A stretch of 64,000 nt of DNA from Iphione sp. A-MEVVRFRX5 (GCA_976226885.1 OZ320314.1:61132001-61196000), one strand, 5' to 3'; counted from the stretch's first letter, positions 958 through 11,667 are shown. A program made the numbers and translations. Notes: generated by a model not told the origin, from the letters alone.

Positions 958-1776
958 ATTCATCCTTTAGAAGCTCAGCCTTGAAATATTCAGTTCGTTG
1001 GTTGTCCCAATAAATGTCATCCCAGCTTCAGCGAAATTTTCCAGGATATTGAGCGAACACTAAATTTAGAGAAGAACAATTTCAAATGGAAGTAGCACCA
1101 ATTTCAGCTCCCAATCAGCTAATCACAGCAGCAGACTCAGCCCAAGAACCGATCGGGAGGACAGACTATGAATGGGCATCAGTAATCTGTTGTCTGGTTC
1201 TACAGCGGCTTCAGCCTCAAGAGTGATGTTAATGATACTTGAAACACAACAGCCCTAGGATTACATGTTAACGAAGACATCAAAGTCACAAAAAGGTGCC
1301 ATTTTGTATCCATACCTCGGTTGTCGATTTGTTTGCTTGCTGGCACCTGCCGACCCCCGAGGCCACGTGCAAAGTTGTTGGACATGTATGGCAGGTGATG
1401 AATACCTCACACTGCCTCGCCTGTGGCGTTTTCAACCAGAGTCGCCGGCTCCTCAAAGAAACTGCCTTGGCCGGAACCCTGTGCGAACACGAGGCATCGG
1501 ATGATTAATTTTAGCTGTGAACCCCCTGTGCTATCTAATATTGGAACCTAATATGGCGCCTGGGGAAAGAGCAGCAGTCGTTACCTACTACCGATAGGCG
1601 ATAGACAGCCTACAGCCTAAAGAGTGATTTCTTTCTTTGATCCAAGACATCCTATAACGCTGTATGATTAATGAACTACATAGTCACACACGCACGTGTG
1701 CACATACAGACACACATGCATTTAAAGACGCTCAAGACAGTATAAATGCGCGACTTTACAAATTACATAATCAAAG

Positions 1777-1848
1777 TTAGCACCACTATGAGTCGCTGCG
1801 TGGCGACGAAGGGAGATGATGATGCTGCCACCTGGGGTATACCAGTGA
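1777..1848 (+). repeat. DIRS left inverted terminal repeat
   Basis: 1808-1848 is the exact reverse complement of 6635-6675 (41 bp); 1777-1817 is the exact reverse complement of ICR 6404-6444 (41 bp). Confidence 0.95.
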
Positions 1849-2080
1849 AAATAGCTGTTTCCGCTCGGGGTAGCCGTGCCGTTTCACGCTCCGCAGTCTG
1901 CGTGCGTTTTTCCTCGGATTCCTTTGGATTTTCGTCGCTTTGTCTTCGCATCTTTCTTCGTTTTTACTTGCTGAGCAAGCCGGTGGTTTCTGGACCTATA
2001 ACCAGTTGGGCAGTGTGACTCGCGAACACTTTTTTCTCTCTTCCACGTGGCGGGCCTGACGGCGGCCATTTTTTGTCACC

Positions 2081-3232
2081 ATGTCCAGACGTGGGAAGCA
2101 GGATAAAGACAAGCCCGAGTCGGCTCCAGAGGACATCGGGAACGCCCCGGTTCCTACCAGTACACCCAGCACGATTAATACATCCGAAAATGTATTTACT
2201 CAACTCCTCACGGCGATTATCGACATGCCGAAAGCTCTGAATGACAGACTCTCACACATGGAGGACCGGTTGAGCGCCAAGATGGCGCCCACCCCCTCTA
2301 CTAGCGGACGCTCGTCCACCACGGGTCCGTCTGACGACTACTCTATCTCTGAGATTGGAGACTCTCGTTCGTCTATCGCTACAGAAGAAAACCTCGTCAG
2401 AAGGGGAGAACACGACCTCTCAGAAGGGGAGGTAGACGAAGACTCTGGTACCTCCAGCTACTACGATGGCCTTGTTACCGGCCTAGAGGAAGACGCATCC
2501 ATAGGGAAAGATGCGCACGCCCGTGTTGCTCGTTACACAGGGGGCAGGATCAAGAAACCACTGGAGGGGGAAGCCGCCAAGAATTTACGCCTCAAATACC
2601 CGCGTCCTGCGAACATTCCAGAGATGCAGCCACCTAAACTCAACGGTGCCCTCTGGCATCACATGCATCCTTTTGGACGGAACCGCGACAAGGCGCTTCA
2701 ACGAGTAATGCACCTCATAGTCCCGTCTCTCACAGCAGTCATACGACTCACGGAAGTCTTAGTTGCTCACGAAAAGGACACAGAGTGGGTGCAAGAGGCC
2801 CTGCGGATCACCTCGGACATCATCTCCCTCGAGGTGGGTCTTCGCGAGGAGATATTGAAGTTCCGCCGCGCGGAAGTCAAAAATGATCTCAGCCCCATCT
2901 TCAAACGGTTAGTTGAAGAAGCCCCTGCCTCACAACATTGGTTGTTTGGGGATGAACTCAGACAGCATTGCAAAGACTTGGAGGACGATGAACGCCTTGC
3001 CAAACGAATGGATAAAGGGAAATCGGGCCCCAAACACTTGGCAAAAAACCGCCACGAGCCTTATCGGAAGCCGGACAACAAGTCCAACAGAGGGAAGCCG
3101 AACAGGAAGTTCGGTCGCTCAGACTACCGGTCGTCAACTACATACCGCAGCCCCTTGGAGAACGTCGAACAGCCAAAAAACGGGGCAGCGGGGCCCAACA
3201 AGACCGGGCCCCAGAAAACACAAGCCAAGTAA
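2081..3232 (+). CDS. gag: DIRS ORF1 (gag-like), 383 aa, intact
   Basis: Uninterrupted ORF with good start context (tcaccATG), first ORF after the left ITR; acidic/Ser-rich N-terminus, central KLNGALW...RDKALQ...RRAEVK...WLFGDEL block resembling DIRS ORF1 proteins, basic C-terminus. Confidence 0.88.
   Translation: MSRRGKQDKDKPESAPEDIGNAPVPTSTPSTINTSENVFTQLLTAIIDMPKALNDRLSHMEDRLSAKMAPTPSTSGRSSTTGPSDDYSISEIGDSRSSIATEENLVRRGEHDLSEGEVDEDSGTSSYYDGLVTGLEEDASIGKDAHARVARYTGGRIKKPLEGEAAKNLRLKYPRPANIPEMQPPKLNGALWHHMHPFGRNRDKALQRVMHLIVPSLTAVIRLTEVLVAHEKDTEWVQEALRITSDIISLEVGLREEILKFRRAEVKNDLSPIFKRLVEEAPASQHWLFGDELRQHCKDLEDDERLAKRMDKGKSGPKHLAKNRHEPYRKPDNKSNRGKPNRKFGRSDYRSSTTYRSPLENVEQPKNGAAGPNKTGPQKTQAK
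3175..3212 (+). promoter_or_regulatory. Putative -1 programmed ribosomal frameshift signal (gag to pol)
   Basis: A AAA AAC heptamer in the gag frame (3175-3181), 8-nt spacer, then ggggccc (3190-3196) / gggcccc (3206-3212) stem with a 9-nt loop; the -1 frame is the pol frame and is open from 3016. Confidence 0.6.
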
Positions 3233-3237
3233 ATGAG

Positions 3238-5118
3238 GTGAGTACCCCCTTTAAGGCGGGTAAAATCCCTTCTTGCTTCAATGAATGGTCTTTGATCACA
3301 TCTAACGAAGTAATCTTAGAAATGGTCCGCGGGGTCTCCATTCAGTTCAGGTCTTTACCGCGCCAAACCTTCACCCCTCGACCTTATGTTTTTCCACCAC
3401 CTCAAAGACTGGCCATCGTAGACATTATTGATGAATTACTTCAAGTAGGTTCCATTGTGACTACCACCCGGGAGGACCTCTTGTGGGTATCGAACATCTT
3501 CCTCCGACCCAAGTCCGATGGCTCATTCCGTATGATTCTGGATCTTTCCCCTCTCAATGAGTATGTGGTCTACGAACATTTTAAGATGGAAAACTTCGAA
3601 ACTATCCTCCCCTTGATTCATCGAGGGGCCTGGCTGGCTTCGATAGATCTAAAAAACGCTTACCACGCCATAGCTGTCCACCCTCATTCCCAACGCTATC
3701 TCGGATTCCAATGGGAGGATGCTTTTTACAAGTTCACCGTCCTCCCGTTCGGCCTCTCCTCCGCCCCACGCATTTTCACAAAATTGCTTAAACCCGCTCT
3801 CTCTTACCTCCGTGAGCGGGGGGTGTGTCTAGCAGCCTACATTGATGATCTGCTTATTGTAGGGTCGGATGAGCGAGAGTGCCGTCGTGCTGTACGTCTC
3901 ACGTTGGATCAGATGCAGGGCCTGGGTTATTCGGTCAATGACACTAAGTCTAGCCTTCGGCCTGCAACAGTTATCAACTACCTCGGGTACGTGATCGATG
4001 CTAAAAATAATGTCATTACCCCTACTCTGGAGAAGATAACTAAAGTTCAAAATGCTATTTCCACCTTGTGGCACAACCCACGCCCCACCATTAGGCAAGT
4101 GGCCGCGGTCATAGGCAGTCTGGGGGACCTCACCAAGGCTGCCTCCTATGGATGGTTACACCTCAAAGCTTTAGAAAGGGCTAAGATAGGGGCTCTACGT
4201 AAGGCGGGACCCCTACAGTACAACGCATACATGACCCTCACTGAAGAAGCTTGTTGGGACCTACGGTGGTGGTATGAGCACATACACGCCATTTCCAGGA
4301 AAATCCACCCAGACACGCCCCACATTCACATGTACACTGACGCATCCCTTTTGGGATGGGGAGCCGTTTACAGGGAGGAACGGACAGGAGGCCTCTGGTC
4401 CTGACAGGAGAAAACTTTCCATATCAACACCCTAGAGCTTCAAGCCATTCTCCTAGGGCTTCAGTCATTACTTTCCTGGGTCCGGGGAGAACCGATCCTC
4501 ATTTTTTCTGACAACACGACCGCAGTGGCCCACATTAACTGTCAAGGGGGGACCCGGTCCATCAACTCCGCTCAGGTGGCCTACCATATAGGCTGTTGGG
4601 CGGAGGGGAGAGACATCACCTTGTCTGCCACGCACATTCCTGGGTCTCTCAATGTGGAGGCGGACACCCTCTCCCGAGACATCAACACCAACACGGAGTG
4701 GGAGTTGAATGATGATATTTTCAACCATATTGTACAGTTTTGGGGACTACCCTCAGTCGATCTTTTTGCGTCTAGGATTAATCACAAGGTTAAAACTTAT
4801 GTGAGCTGGCGCCCTGACCCTGATGCCCTGTTTGTTGACGCTTTCCTATTGGACTGGGCACAGTTTGATCATGGCTATGCCTTTCCACCTTTCAGCCTCG
4901 TGGGACGTGTGGTACGCAAGGCGATCTCAGACGGAGCCAAGGTGGTCATCGTGGCCCCCACCTGGCCGGGGCAGTGGTGGTATCCACTGGTGCGCCAAAT
5001 GTCGTCGACTCCGCCTCTCATCATACCGCCCAGCGCCGGCAATCTCCTCGCCCCACACGCCCAGCCAACAGCGGACAACGTCGCCAACACAGGGCTGACT
5101 GTAGTTCGCTCATGGTAG
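3238..5118 (+). pseudogene. pol: DIRS pol: reverse transcriptase - RNase H - Dam-like methyltransferase, one in-frame TGA at 4402-4404
   Basis: RT motifs FRMILDLSPLN, IDLKNAY, LPFGLSSAPRIFTK, YIDD; RNase H motifs YTDASLLGWG, HINTLEL, FSDNTTAV, HIPGSLNVEADTLSR. ORFs 3238-4404 and 4525-5118 share a frame, and translation across the stop reads ...GGLWS*QEKTFHINTLEL... Confidence 0.93.
4699..5001 (+). other. DNA N6-adenine methyltransferase-like (MT) domain at the C-terminus of pol
   Basis: WELNDDIF...VDLFAS (4759-4773)...DPDALFVDAF...DW...YAFPPF (4876-4893)...VIVAPTWPGQWWYP, the motif string typical of the DIRS MT domain. Confidence 0.88.
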
Positions 5119-6053
5119 CGGCCATTGACGGGATGTCCAATGACCCCACTGTGCGAAAACACATCCTCCACTCCTGGCGCCCCAAGACCAGACGGGTCTA
5201 CAGGACTTACCTCAATAAGTGGCAGTTATTCTGTATCCGGTCAGGTATTGATCAATCCAACCCTACGCTGATCCAGGGTCACCGCTTCCTGTGTCACCTT
5301 TATGAACAAGGGTTACGGTACAATGTACTTAACGTTGCTCGCTCAGCTTTATCTGCGGTCCTACCGCCTTTTAAGAGTATGTTTGGGGTACATTCTTTTG
5401 GATCTCACCCGGTAACCATTAGATTACTCAGGGGTATGTTTAACATTAGACCTCCCAGGGCTCGCTATGTCCACACCTGGGACATCGAGCTGGTTCTCAA
5501 TCTGTTCAGAGAACACACAAGTAACGCCTACCTCTCCCTTAAGATGTTAACGTTCAAAACGGTTATGTTATTGCTTCTGGCGTCATGCGGGCGCTCTCAG
5601 ACCGTTTACAAGATCAAACGGGACAATGTGCACCTCACGTCCAAAGGAACAGTCGTCATCACGTTTGACTCTGTATTGAAGCATTCCCGACCTGGACGTC
5701 GGGCGGACAAGATCATCCTCGATCCCCTGCCAGACGATCGCGCAGTGTGCCCCGTTAGGGCCCTCAAGGAGTATCTGCGCCGAACCAGGGATCTCGCCCA
5801 ACCAGGAGACAGACTGTTCCTGTGTCTCCTGCCTCCCCACCAGTCTGCGGCCCAGAATACGATCGTTCGGTGGGTATGACAGGTTATGCAAATGGCGGGA
5901 GTGGACACTTCCATGTTTACGGTGCATAGCACGAGGGGGGCTGCTGCCTCCAAGATGTTCCACGCTGGCGTCCCCATCAATGTCATTCTTGAAAAAGGAA
6001 TGTGGTCCTCGGAGTCCAGCTTCAAGCGCCATTACTGCCGCCCAGTGGCTTAG
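5112..6053 (+). pseudogene. DIRS tyrosine recombinase, one in-frame TGA at 5877-5879
   Basis: ATG at 5112 overlaps the pol stop; LLLASCGRS (R), KHSRPG (K); past the TGA the same frame gives QVMQMAGVDTSMFTVHSTRGAAAS...GMWSSESSFKRHYCRPVA* with HxxR, W and catalytic Y, ending at TAG 6051-6053. Confidence 0.92.
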
Positions 6054-6403
6054 TTCGGTTGTGTTGACTGTTATTGTGAACTGTTGCGTTAACACTCATA
6101 TCGAGGGACTTCTTGCCTGCAGTTGTGGGGCCGTCTGCCCCTCACCTGTACCCTTGGTGCTTATCTCTTTGCCATACTTACCCCCTCGGGGACATGATTA
6201 GGCCTAAAGCAGGGCCTCAGATCGAACTTTTCTTGTTCGTTTTTGGTTCGAGGAGGGAAGTTCCTCCGCTGGTTCACCTGTCACCAGGTTTATTGAGGTT
6301 GAAACTATGTTTTTCAGCAATAAATTTCCTTCTTCTCAGGAAATTTCTCGTTCGTGTTTTTTCCTCTAGCACAACTACTCGACCCCCAATAGGCTTCTTT
6401 GAA

Positions 6404-6528
6404 ATCTCCCTTCGTCGCCACGCAGCGACTCATAGTGGTGCTAATTACTCGGTTTGGTTAAACTTACCTGGTAAGTTGACAGCAAACCCTGGTTAGCACC
6501 ACTTGAGGAGAGTAGTGGGGAGGAAGGG
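6404..6528 (+). repeat. DIRS internal complementary region (ICR)
   Basis: 6404-6444 = reverse complement of 1777-1817; 6442-6528 = reverse complement of 6670-6756 (87 bp). The halves overlap at TAA. No mismatches seen. Confidence 0.95.
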
Positions 6529-6634
6529 CCCACCCTCCCTCCCTCAAAATCGCCTACAGGGTCATTTTGCTTCTTTTTGCTGCTTGGCGGACCTCTTGGG
6601 GGTCTCCCTCGCTGCAATCTCATCTATTTTGGCA

Positions 6635-6756
6635 TCACTGGTATACCCCAGGTGGCAGCATCATCATCTCCCTTCCTCCCCACTACTCTCCTCAAGTGGT
6701 GCTAACCAGGGTTTGCTGTCAACTTACCAGGTAAGTTTAACCAAACCGAGTAATTA
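6635..6756 (+). repeat. DIRS right ITR plus ~51-nt right extension
   Basis: 41-bp perfect inverse of the left ITR core, a diverged segment ending ctcaagtggtgctaa (6691-6705, inverse of the left tip), then an extension to TTA 6754-6756. Confidence 0.93.
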
Positions 6757-9700
6757 AAAATGACCACTAATGGTGTAGTACACATAATGCGCAGTTCACC
6801 TCCTATGTACTTATGATATGGGGGTTCCAGGTCCGGGAAAGATAATTCCGGATCATAGATTATGTGGCATAGCATCTGATGACGCTATACTCACCACAAT
6901 ATACACAAGATCTTACCTGAAGAATTACCTGCCCTCCGCCCCCCCCGACATACTTACCGGCAGACATGTACTCATTATTGCAGGTTGCGGTACCTCTCAT
7001 GCATCTGATCGTACTAAGGTGGATCTTCGTGTCTTCTCTCAGTCTGTGCCTTTAGAAACGTCCATAAATTTTATCAGGTTACCACGGCTCTCACTCCAAA
7101 CTCCTGTCTCGAGAATTGCAAAAGTCGCCAGGGTATTTACATGTCTTTATCATCACTTAGACACTCGATGGCGGACTACATTAACATGAGCGCATGTAAA
7201 GCAGAACTTCCTGTTGAACTTTGATAAATCATGAGTAACCAGATATATGCTAATCGTTGACAGAAGTATGCAGTTTTAAACGACATAACGACTTTTGCTC
7301 TGAACGGTCGTTCCGAGTATAACTGTTTCTGTATCACGAGGTTTTCCAATACATGTGATGCGTTGGAATTGATCCCGTTTTCCTTTTAATTGTCCTTTCT
7401 ACAGAACTAAAGAGGAGGACAGGAGAGAGCCCGCTTGCATGTCCCTCCTACGGCGGTACGCGTTGCTTCATCGACGTCTTCCATTGCCACTTCATCAATT
7501 TGTAAGAAGTATGTCTTTTGACGTGTCAAAGCTCTCCTTCCTTGGGTAAGTTTGCACTTCTTCTACACTATACCTGTACACGTACTTCGCTTCTTGAGAG
7601 TGAAAACTGGTGACAAATGAGCACATGCAGAGTTTTTATGTTTCTTTCAGCGGCATAATCGATCAGGTCATATAGAATTTTGCACTTTTACATATTCTGC
7701 TGTTTTTATGTGCGTAGTTTTAGAACTAGACAATACTTCAGCTGGTATCTGGTGTAACTACTTCCATAAAGTGATCTCGTATCGATTCTCGTCGTGGAGA
7801 GCATCGTTAGAGTCGGCTACAAGCATAATTATATATGGGGCGCAGTGCATGTAGATACCCCCTCCCTCCCCTCCGGAGGATACATTGTTGCCGTTAGGCT
7901 CTCATGGCTGCTCTTATGGGAAACACTTCCCTCCTCTGGGAGATATACAAACTACGTGTAAATCTTTTGAAATATTGCGTGCTGACTTGGCAGGCCTTCG
8001 CGTCACATTTTCCCTGCGTGGAAAAGGTCGATTATCAGGTATGAGGAATGCATGCGCAAGTGTATTGTAAGGTAGGGATATGTAGATGCGTTATGACCTC
8101 CACGGGGTGCAGCAAGAAGGAAGCGAGGTGACTGGGCCACAAAAATAAACATTATCCGTGTAGATATAATTTTGTCAAGTCCTGATCGCCACGCTTGCTG
8201 GTTCACCTTGTCTTCATGCCATGCTTTTGAGACGAGAGTTGAAGCTAGGGTCATTTCGAAATAGGGACCGTTATGATCACATTTCACTGGAGGTCTGTTG
8301 TTTTCGAGATGACTATGAAGACGCTCGTGTACGTCAAATCACATGATATAATGTGCATGTTTGTCAGCCAGTCATTCCCCATAAATTTATCATAAAAAAG
8401 AAACTTTGGGGATTTATGACGATTTGCCTACATGTTCAGACTTAAGGGACTGAACATCGATCCCAAATCCGAATCATCCTAGAGACAAACTTGAAATTTT
8501 CGAAAACTGAAGTCATACTGTTTTCCAGAGTGGATCTCTCTTGCACGGGAGGGGAGAAATCAAAAAAGAAAAGCTATCCGCCTTGCAGAACAGTCGTGTT
8601 TCAGTATGTAAACGCAGAGGTAGACGACAGTCATACATGAACGCAGTGGAGTGATATAAGCCAGCTGTATGTAAACATGGATTAGGCGTGGTAGCAACCG
8701 GACGTATGTAGAAGCTGGAATGGCTTAACATGGCAAGGACCAATGTGGAAGCGGCGTTCCTGGTTAACGCCAGTTTACAGGCGTCTACGTGTAGTGTAGA
8801 AAGGGGAGCTACGGTGCCTATAGTGTGCCTAGGATCTATTAAAGCTATAGTGGAGTGATAATGGTTACTAAAGGGCTGTTTAAATGGTTTGCTGACAATC
8901 TAGCCATCTGCCAAGTTTGTTACCAAGTTGTTGCTAAGTAGGGAGAGAACTATTGATTTGCTGGAAAAGTCAGTGCGTGTTTTTATCCTCCAAACAACCT
9001 GCCATAATGAGATCTGCTACATCAGGAGAAAGGACATTAGGTATATTTTATCCGTACATTACGAAAGGCGGCCATTGAATAAAACCTCACTCCCCAAAAG
9101 AATACATACAGGTGCATGTATTGAAGCGAAGCAAATCCTCTACTCATAGCTTCATATATGTGTCGAAAATTGTGTGAAAAAATGACAAGGAACTCTAAGT
9201 TCACCAAATACGGTGACTTTAATAGGGTTAGGAATTGACATGTAAACACGAGCTTTCGAGGTGTTACCACCTCTTCATCAGGTTGACACGTCGTTTGTAT
9301 CGAAACCTGTATACTGTATATTTCCTCTTAATGACCTCCATATAGATGCTTTGAAGGGCTTTGGTATGCTTTACCAGGCTAACGGCCAAACAGACAGATC
9401 TAACTGTGCAGATGAACGAGGCAGAATTAATCGACAGAGAGCACGTTAGGGCGCAGATGCTAATTCGGACCTTGTGTCTCATCTTCTGATAAGCTAATAT
9501 CTCTGCCTTATAATACCGTAAATAACGTCCCCTCCAGGATGTCTTAATCTGGACTGACAGCAGATCTTCAGTTCATGATGACATTCAGCATATTTTCCAT
9601 CGTAGCAAACTGAAAATATTTTGCATCGGCTCAGAAATTGAGTTCTTATTCAGCACTTAAAGTGAAATAATAAGTGTCACATTCAACGTGAATAGCCCCT

Positions 9701-10868: not shown

Positions 10869-11010
10869 AAGTGCTGAATTTAATGATTTAAAGTCCAAAT
10901 AGTACTGAATTTGATGCTTGAGAGTTCCAATAGTGCTGAATTTGATGACTAAAAGTCCAAAAAGTACTGAATTTGATGACTTAGAGTCCTAAAAGTGCTG
11001 ACTTTGATAA
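10869..11010. repeat. ~31-bp tandem repeat, about 4.5 copies
   Basis: Consensus approx. aagtrctgaatttgatgacttaragtccaaa. Confidence 0.85.
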
Positions 11011-11013
11011 CTA

Positions 11014-11280
11014 TATCTACCTTTGAAAAATGACTTCTGGAGCCTCCCTGGAGCCCCAAATTTGCGCGACAACACGTTGTACACAGGGTTTATTCATATC
11101 TACCTTTGAAAATGACTTCTGGACCCTCTCTGCAGCCCCAAATTCGCACGACAACACCTTGTACACAGGGTTTATTCATATCTACCTTTGAAACATGACT
11201 TCTGGAGCCTCCCTAGAGCCCCAAATTTGCGTGACAACACCTTGTACACAGAGTTTATTCATGTCTGCCTTTGAAAATGA
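11014..11280. repeat. 82-83-bp tandem repeat, about 3.2 copies
   Basis: Units start tatctacctttgaaa at 11014, 11097 and 11179, with a partial copy at 11262. Confidence 0.9.
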
Positions 11281-11667
11281 CACCTTGTTGAGAGTGGTCT
11301 TTGTTGTCCAGAGGGAGACGCTCTGTAAAATTTTGCTGTCCGCATTGGAGACGTCAGCTTATTATGATAAAGTATAGGAAATCAGTTCATTCTGCTTCAA
11401 ATTGTCCGCATTGGAGACATGTCCACTTCCGAGACGTGTCCGCAGGCAGACAGTGTACTGTATAGGTTTCTTTTCGATATATGTTCTTTTTTAAAAAATT
11501 TTCAACAGAACGCATCATCAGCTCGAGAGCTGTTATCCTGATGGCTTGCCTATATTGTTGATTAGTAGGGTAAATATGGGTTTATATGTCTAGCTAACAT
11601 TTTTATGTCATTATGTACATAAATGTCATGTTCCATGTTACATACAGATATTGATGAAAATAATTAC

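Follow-up and report, generated by a model that had tools for sequence, protein, structure and literature searches.

A conserved candidate -1 frameshift signal and a predicted splice pair in DIRS1-like retrotransposons of Iphione sp.

DIRS elements are widespread and occur in animals, fungi and amoebae. We analysed a stretch of 64,000 nucleotides (nt) from Iphione sp. A-MEVVRFRX5 (GCA_976226885.1 OZ320314.1:61132001-61196000; termed the window, all positions being on its plus strand), which contains a full-length DIRS1-like retrotransposon at 1777-6756. As described for DIRS1-like elements, it has inverted terminal repeats (ITRs), two internal complementary regions (ICRs) that overlap on 3 nt and a right extension, and within a length of ~5 kb it carries gag, a pol gene for reverse transcriptase (RT), RNase H (RH) and methyltransferase (MT), and an open reading frame (ORF) for a tyrosine recombinase (YR) that overlaps pol (PMC3266345). 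The covered part of that description deals with the ORF overlaps and gives no translation route, whereas in the window element we find a specific -1 signal and a predicted splice pair. More generally, the covered parts of the DIRS literature describe three overlapping ORFs, and state no route by which ORF2 and ORF3 are translated. DIRS pol has neither a protease nor a DDE integrase, according to the part of the source covered (PMC3783388).

The system to which the gag/pol junction of the window element is best compared is the programmed -1 ribosomal frameshifting that joins gag to pol in retroviruses and long terminal repeat elements and that is also known from PEG10; the covered part of that account mentions neither DIRS elements nor tyrosine recombinases (PMC5009743). 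For Ngaro, frameshifting into the YR was proposed by Poulter and Butler 2015, as quoted in PMC13003380, and programmed -1 frameshifting in a YR retrotransposon is the point in common. As quoted in the covered part, however, the Ngaro proposal concerns the overlap from RT/RH to YR and comes with no signal, whereas in the window element the slip is from gag to pol and a slip from pol to YR tests poorly (PMC13003380). Our literature search found no DIRS gag/pol slippery site and no splice that skips pol, within a coverage that leaves out the classic DIRS papers, which may already propose a gag-pol frameshift. The nearest known signal is that of astroviruses, which combines A AAA AAC with a simple stem.

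The gag/pol junction in the window and in related families

The pol frame of the window element is open from 3016 and lies in -1 relative to gag (2081-3232). Its first in-frame ATG is at 3322-3324, a position that varies across families. Window gag has two canonical in-frame slippery heptamers only, both A AAA AAC, at 3175-3181 and 3043-3049. The one at 3175-3181, the likely shift site, is followed by an 8-nt spacer (3182-3189) and a GC stem-loop (3190-3212), a predicted 3' stimulator in which 3190-3196 pairs with 3206-3212 in 7 base pairs (bp) around a 9-nt loop. A sequence-only reading of the window had proposed these positions and lengths, all of which hold on the sequence, and had interpreted the junction as a -1 frameshift signal. 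A zero-frame X XXY YYZ, a downstream ORF in -1, a 3' structure within 5-9 nt and a -1 frame held open by selection are sequence marks of canonical programmed -1 frameshifting, and the junction has all four, the structure by prediction. The hairpin folds at -16.5 kcal/mol over 3187-3230 (z -3.63, reached in 0/200 shuffles), and in 79- and 119-nt windows of the same copy z is -0.48 and -1.19. Since the significance of folding in a single copy depends on window length, the case rests on the relatives of the element. A pseudoknot was considered and rejected, as pairing of the loop with ~3287-3292 is, by eye, not kept in relatives, and RNAalifold returns the hairpin alone over 77 columns.

We collected 76 loci from the same genome, comprising the window together with 20 full-length copies; a pol search supplied the rest, 15 loci and 40 more chosen from its lower ranks. 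Grouped at 85% nucleotide identity, they form 48 families. In a pol tree with 49 rows, for 46 families plus 3 metagenome loci (L033 and L040 left out), three strongly supported clades separate: A, with A AAA AAY; B, with G GGA AAC; and C, which has no heptamer. The site was located by the gag peptide SPL[ED] alone, not by the heptamer or by stops, which anchored 41 families, of which 40 were scored; L120 was unscored in this count, and a CCCAAAC match in L076, a copy in which the site is deleted, was dropped.

All 40 scored families have a canonical heptamer at this Lys-Asn or Gly-Asn codon pair (25 with A AAA AAY and 15 with G GGA AAC), as do 29/30 loci, and the anchored but unscored family likewise has G GGA AAC. 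Elsewhere in gag, the heptamer spelling is used in 8/103 Lys-Asn and 1/29 Gly-Asn pairs. A AAA AAC, like G GGA AAC, is among the heptamers most prone to shifting on mammalian ribosomes, with a usual spacer of 5-9 nt, according to the covered part of the source (PMC5009743). In the 40 families with a true heptamer the spacer measures 6-8 nt, the longest helix beginning at that distance in every one of them. Clade B, the sister clade (16 families, 42-47% pol identity), combines G GGA AAC with a spacer of 6-7 nt and a different stem of mostly 10-13 bp. Between clades A and B the letters of heptamer and stem thus differ, while the predicted signal retains its architecture. The heptamer at 3175 is kept in 22/23 diverged loci versus 2/23 for the one at 3043, at the same encoded residues. 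The second heptamer, to which the sequence-only reading had also drawn attention, is therefore present in frame but not conserved, and is probably incidental.

The -1 frame is held open exactly from the heptamer. The 17 codons preceding it contain 26 stops in the -1 frame (22 families), the 17 codons following it none. Between heptamer and gag stop, 21.9 such stops are expected from the gag peptide and codon usage and none is observed, whereas upstream of the heptamer the same synonymous-codon model expects 34.0 and 27 are found. Because the stops vanish exactly from the heptamer on, the functional overlap is ~58 nt and pol entry is bracketed at the heptamer. The overlap of ~215 nt that had been noted for the window copy is real there but specific to its subfamily, since in 15/30 loci the -1 frame closes at most 24 nt upstream of the heptamer. 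The stem, too, is under constraint. Over the 25 rows of clade A, 97.7% of cells are paired, and two pairs are changed on both sides, in nine cells, a result that 0/500 shuffles reach; the pol tree places these compensatory changes on five or more separate branches. The RNAalifold consensus returns the same helix as the stem at 3190-3212, and folding z is below -2 in 28/40 families. Heptamer, spacing and covarying stem, the three features that carried the frameshift interpretation of the sequence-only reading, are conserved in related DIRS families, the comparison extending to 40 of them, and support that interpretation.

As the slip signal at the gag/pol junction is kept across ~40 related families, RT is likely made via a -1 slip, and we conclude, from comparison of sequences, that a Gag-RT-RH-MT fusion is very probably produced by programmed -1 ribosomal frameshifting at 3175-3181. 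The stem would make ribosomes pause while A AAA AAC is occupied by the Lys and Asn tRNAs; a minority would slip back one base, pass the gag stop 55 nt further on and read pol, and the remaining ribosomes would release Gag. For an unbroken element the predicted Gag-Pol has 1,012 amino acids (367 + 645), in agreement with the ~1,010 that had been estimated, but the window copy itself, to which that estimate was applied, has stops in pol and YR. Without a protease in DIRS pol, the fusion may remain uncleaved.

Three other routes to Pol have to be compared with frameshifting. If pol were translated alone from the ATG at 3322, by internal initiation or from a shorter RNA, heptamer and stem would be by-products of gag coding. 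The gag tail peptide is indeed conserved, and the first in-frame pol ATG lies at +135 to +153 relative to the heptamer in 26/40 families. It lies, however, at +54 to +63 in four, at +213 to +396 in nine (in some of these through copy-specific indels), and one family has none. Moreover, pol residues upstream of the ATG can be aligned across families, and such initiation would leave unexplained why synonymous positions are fixed to the heptamer (40/40 versus 9/132), why -1 stops are lost past it (0 versus 21.9) and why the stem shows compensatory changes; we consider it very improbable. We give just as little credence to the joining of gag to pol by splicing, with an acceptor in or near the overlap such as the CAG at 3212-3214. 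Splice signals are predicted elsewhere in the element, and the AG at 3213-3214 is found in 21/24 clade A families, but it is missing from the other 3/24, it has no pyrimidine tract, and the -1 frame is already held open from the heptamer, upstream of this AG. An element-wide scan of 13 families finds no splice acceptor conserved ahead of pol: its single conserved acceptor-like site is at 4896, and no donor-like site lies upstream of 3238. The sequence-only reading had named an upstream in-frame ATG or a spliced pol mRNA in related elements as findings that would speak against frameshifting; neither a fixed in-frame pol ATG nor a conserved acceptor ahead of pol was found. Transcriptional slippage on the A run, for which clade A offers six consecutive A, can practically be discounted. 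Polymerase slippage usually requires longer runs, and 16 families have G GGA AAC, with three A only, in the same place. The geometry of spacer and stem is, furthermore, a ribosomal signature, as judged from the covered part of the source (PMC5009743).

Several points weigh against frameshifting at this site or limit its reach. The strong counts all come from related families of one genome and are not independent trials. The stem is merely 7 bp long and not outstanding in longer windows of the window copy, and the covariation of the clade B stem is not significant (130/500 shuffles), this stem being longer, of other sequence and paired as well as that of clade A, but too invariant for a covariation signal. 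A Met at ~+147 is common and is exactly there in 17/40 families. Clade C (6/48 families) has no canonical heptamer, and its ATG-poor pol frame is open for ~250 nt into gag. Finally, of 27 metagenome loci 16 were scored, the other 11/27 being left out for want of a pol N-terminus. Four of the metagenome loci, two of them nearly identical, have A AAA AAC with no comparable stem and with 162-180 nt of open gag frame upstream. Neither G GGA AAC nor A AAA AAC occurs in any of 11 other distant metagenome loci, several of which have a pol frame that extends upstream, still open, for over 1 kb.

A predicted splice from the slipped frame to the recombinase

Two features that the sequence-only reading had overlooked make it incomplete: a predicted donor 5 nt past the gag stop and a predicted acceptor, in phase with it, where the YR frame opens. 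The predicted 5' splice donor (3238-3243) is in phase 0 of the -1 frame, and 38/40 families have GTRAGY in this phase 2-11 nt past the gag stop; among the remaining Val-Ser codon pairs of pol, 2/84 have this spelling. The predicted 3' splice acceptor (4863-4895), in the MT motif YAFPPFS, consists of a branch-like motif, a pyrimidine tract and a CAG ending at 4895. It reads YAG in 38/38 families, in phase 0 to YR in 37/38, with a mean of 12.2 pyrimidines in 14 nt and a branch-like motif in 34/38. In the scan of 13 full-length families it is the sole conserved acceptor-like site of the whole element, the first exon base being 4896. The YR frame is open throughout the 68 codons past the acceptor in 36/38 families and throughout the 68 codons before it in 0/38. 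Past the acceptor 1 YR-frame stop is observed against 86.1 expected, before it 191 against 143.2. An ATG near 5112 is found in merely 24/38 families. The acceptor Ser is fixed as AGY, which is not diagnostic alone, since a further Ser column likewise consists entirely of AGY.

For clades A and B, donor and acceptor phases agree solely when the ribosome is in the -1 frame, and a Gag-YR fusion of 771 amino acids (367 + 19 + 385) is therefore predicted. Splicing from 3238 to 4895 would remove most of pol and put YR in the slipped frame. Because the donor lies just past the gag stop in the -1 frame, this downstream ORF would be within reach of already-slipped ribosomes only. On balance, and with clearly less confidence than for the Gag-Pol fusion, we favour one frameshift acting on two messages, in which unspliced RNA would give Gag and Gag-RT-RH-MT, and RNA spliced from 3238 to 4895 would give Gag and, by the same slip, Gag-YR. 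Junction-dependent decay follows a 50-nt rule, and the spliced RNA would escape it, since its gag stop is within 11 nt of the junction.

The main rival to a spliced Gag-YR is a second slip, from pol to YR. Here the slip at 3175-3181 would make Gag-Pol, but YR would be reached by a further -1 shift near 4887-4893 or, alternatively, through reinitiation at the ATG close to 5112. The YR frame is in -1 to that of pol, and N CCT TTC stands 9 nt before the AG in 32/38 families, in strictly canonical form in 6; reinitiation could draw on the 24/38 families that have the ATG. A route without splicing is also consistent with the genomic copies, as none that lacks exactly the predicted intron was found in 124 gag-YR match pairs (from the best 150 matches per search) or in 20 further loci, the shortest gag-YR gap in these pairs being 998 nt, where ~224 nt are expected for an intron-less copy. 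Gene models that cross the splice were sought in a protein database, which gave 6 distant matches, none of them informative. The supposed slip site, however, has no 3' structure (median z +0.68, 0/38 below -2, empty consensus fold). In L044, L082, L085, L116 and L117 the acceptor is TAG, which would place a YR-frame stop right after the slip. Furthermore, in clade C the AG has shifted by 12 nt with no change of phase, while the codon for Ser is back to TCN. Neither a second slip nor reinitiation explains the conserved donor, and we regard this alternative to the spliced Gag-YR as unlikely, though of more weight than any of the other routes to Pol.

Readthrough of the gag stop into a spliced YR via the AG at 5103-5104 was considered as well and rejected. 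Two consecutive stops are found in some relatives, this AG is lost in 2/20 other full-length loci and is not preceded by a pyrimidine tract, and the YR frame opens further upstream, at 4896. Further donor-like motifs, conserved in 13/13 families, are found at 6471 and 6731 (in the ICR and right-terminus repeats) and at 3987 (in RT), and are probably by-products of repeat and coding constraint. Three near-identical loci (L002, L003 and L006) share a 1-nt insertion just past the donor, at ~3258. The insertion shuts the pol frame, yet it falls within the predicted intron, so this variant, defective in pol, has apparently been propagated in trans.

Spliced subgenomic RNAs are familiar from retroviral and gypsy env, foamy virus pol and copia gag. 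What the window element is predicted to share with them is a single primary transcript in which splicing opens a downstream ORF. We know of no case in which an integration enzyme is accessed by a slip combined with a splice. Frameshifting alone is an expected mechanism in a new group, and its combination with the splice is the surprising part. If true, the two-message reading would account jointly for the lack of an ATG in pol, its frequent lack in YR and the long overlap of pol with YR that is typical of DIRS1-like elements, and both enzymes would be tethered to Gag at sub-stoichiometric levels. If frameshift and splice both hold, annotations of DIRS pol and YR would need new N-termini, as Gag fusions, the overprinted extension of YR would gain a function, and control of an integration enzyme by frameshift plus splice would join the known recoding strategies.

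Clade C and distant elements

As clade C keeps the pol frame open without a canonical heptamer, close relatives include some with a different route. Where this frame opens, all seven clade C loci L116, L117, L119, L123, L125, L127 and L131 have 6-9 consecutive G and then TTTC. This G-run lies ~230-260 nt upstream of the pol start, the frame then being open for ~250 nt, and may be a non-canonical shift site. The clade C acceptor AG, 12 nt further on, is in phase in 5/5, and the donor precedes the gag stop and is in the gag frame, so that a clade C Gag-YR would need no slip.

In the four metagenome loci with A AAA AAC, the heptamer lies 12-51 nt past the opening of the pol frame and the donor is in phase 0, as is a YAG in all three of them that have MT sequence. 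Several of the 11 distant metagenome loci have gag and pol in one frame. Since six families and most distant metagenome elements are without the signal, the mechanism would be clade-wide, not universal; the proposal that DIRS pol is expressed by frameshifting stands for ~40 related families and not for every DIRS element.

The border of gag and pol in the metagenome loci L084, L086-L092, L096, L097 and L104, which are distant DIRS-like elements, carries AG|GTA, a donor-like motif in phase 2 of the pol frame in 10/11; their pol frame is often open far upstream. In L081, L082 and L085 the ORF in the gag frame next to pol is only ~260 nt long and is fragmented further upstream; their gag may contain introns or be decayed. 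L108 (C10 14701704-14703445, same genome) has two gag C-terminal matches of equal score, separated by 1.3 kb, which suggests an internal duplication.

Structure of the window element

The element at 1777-6756 is DIRS1-like by its ITRs, its ICR with a 3-nt overlap, its RT/RH/MT pol and its overlapping YR ORF, and it aligns end to end with other copies. The left terminus with the left ITR (1777-1848) is complementary to the right ITR (96%, 1800-1848 versus 6635-6683) and to the ICR (100%, 1777-1817 versus 6404-6444). The ICR (6404-6528) has two halves, 6404-6444 and 6442-6528, which share the 3 nt at 6442-6444, and it is complementary to both termini. The right ITR and right extension (6635-6756) pair as inverted repeats with the left terminus and the ICR. 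No long direct repeats bound the element and its repeats are inverted, which led us to reject an identity as Ngaro or PAT with their split direct repeats. An Rfam search over 1700-6900 gave 0 matches at E <= 1.

ORF1, the zero frame (2081-3232), encodes 383 amino acids, and its ATG is kept in 12/13 families. As it has no Pfam match, it is named gag by position. The pol frame, counted from the shift site (3181-5118), encodes RT, RH-like and Dam-like MT domains. RVT_1 is matched at E 3e-22, and RVT_3 (2e-4) and Dam (2e-5) are slightly under the curated cut-off. The YR frame counted from the acceptor (4896-6053) has ~72 codons overprinted on MT, corresponding to an overlap of ~220 nt between YR ORF and MT. 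Its domain matches are below cut-off (Phage_int_SAM_1, E 0.007; PF00589, E 5e-4 on the C-terminal piece), and PF00589 is carried by 4/6 homologues in the protein database search. The window copy is broken by two internal stops, of which the one in pol (4402-4404) is shared with 0/20 and the one in YR (5877-5879) with 1/20 other full-length loci. The same genome has five further copies at 95-96% identity and many diverged relatives, the near-identical copies being dispersed.

Outside the DIRS element, the window contains a perfect 21-nt inverted repeat at 894-957, its arms 22 nt apart. At 10870-11281 there are tandem arrays with units of ~31 nt and 82-83 nt.

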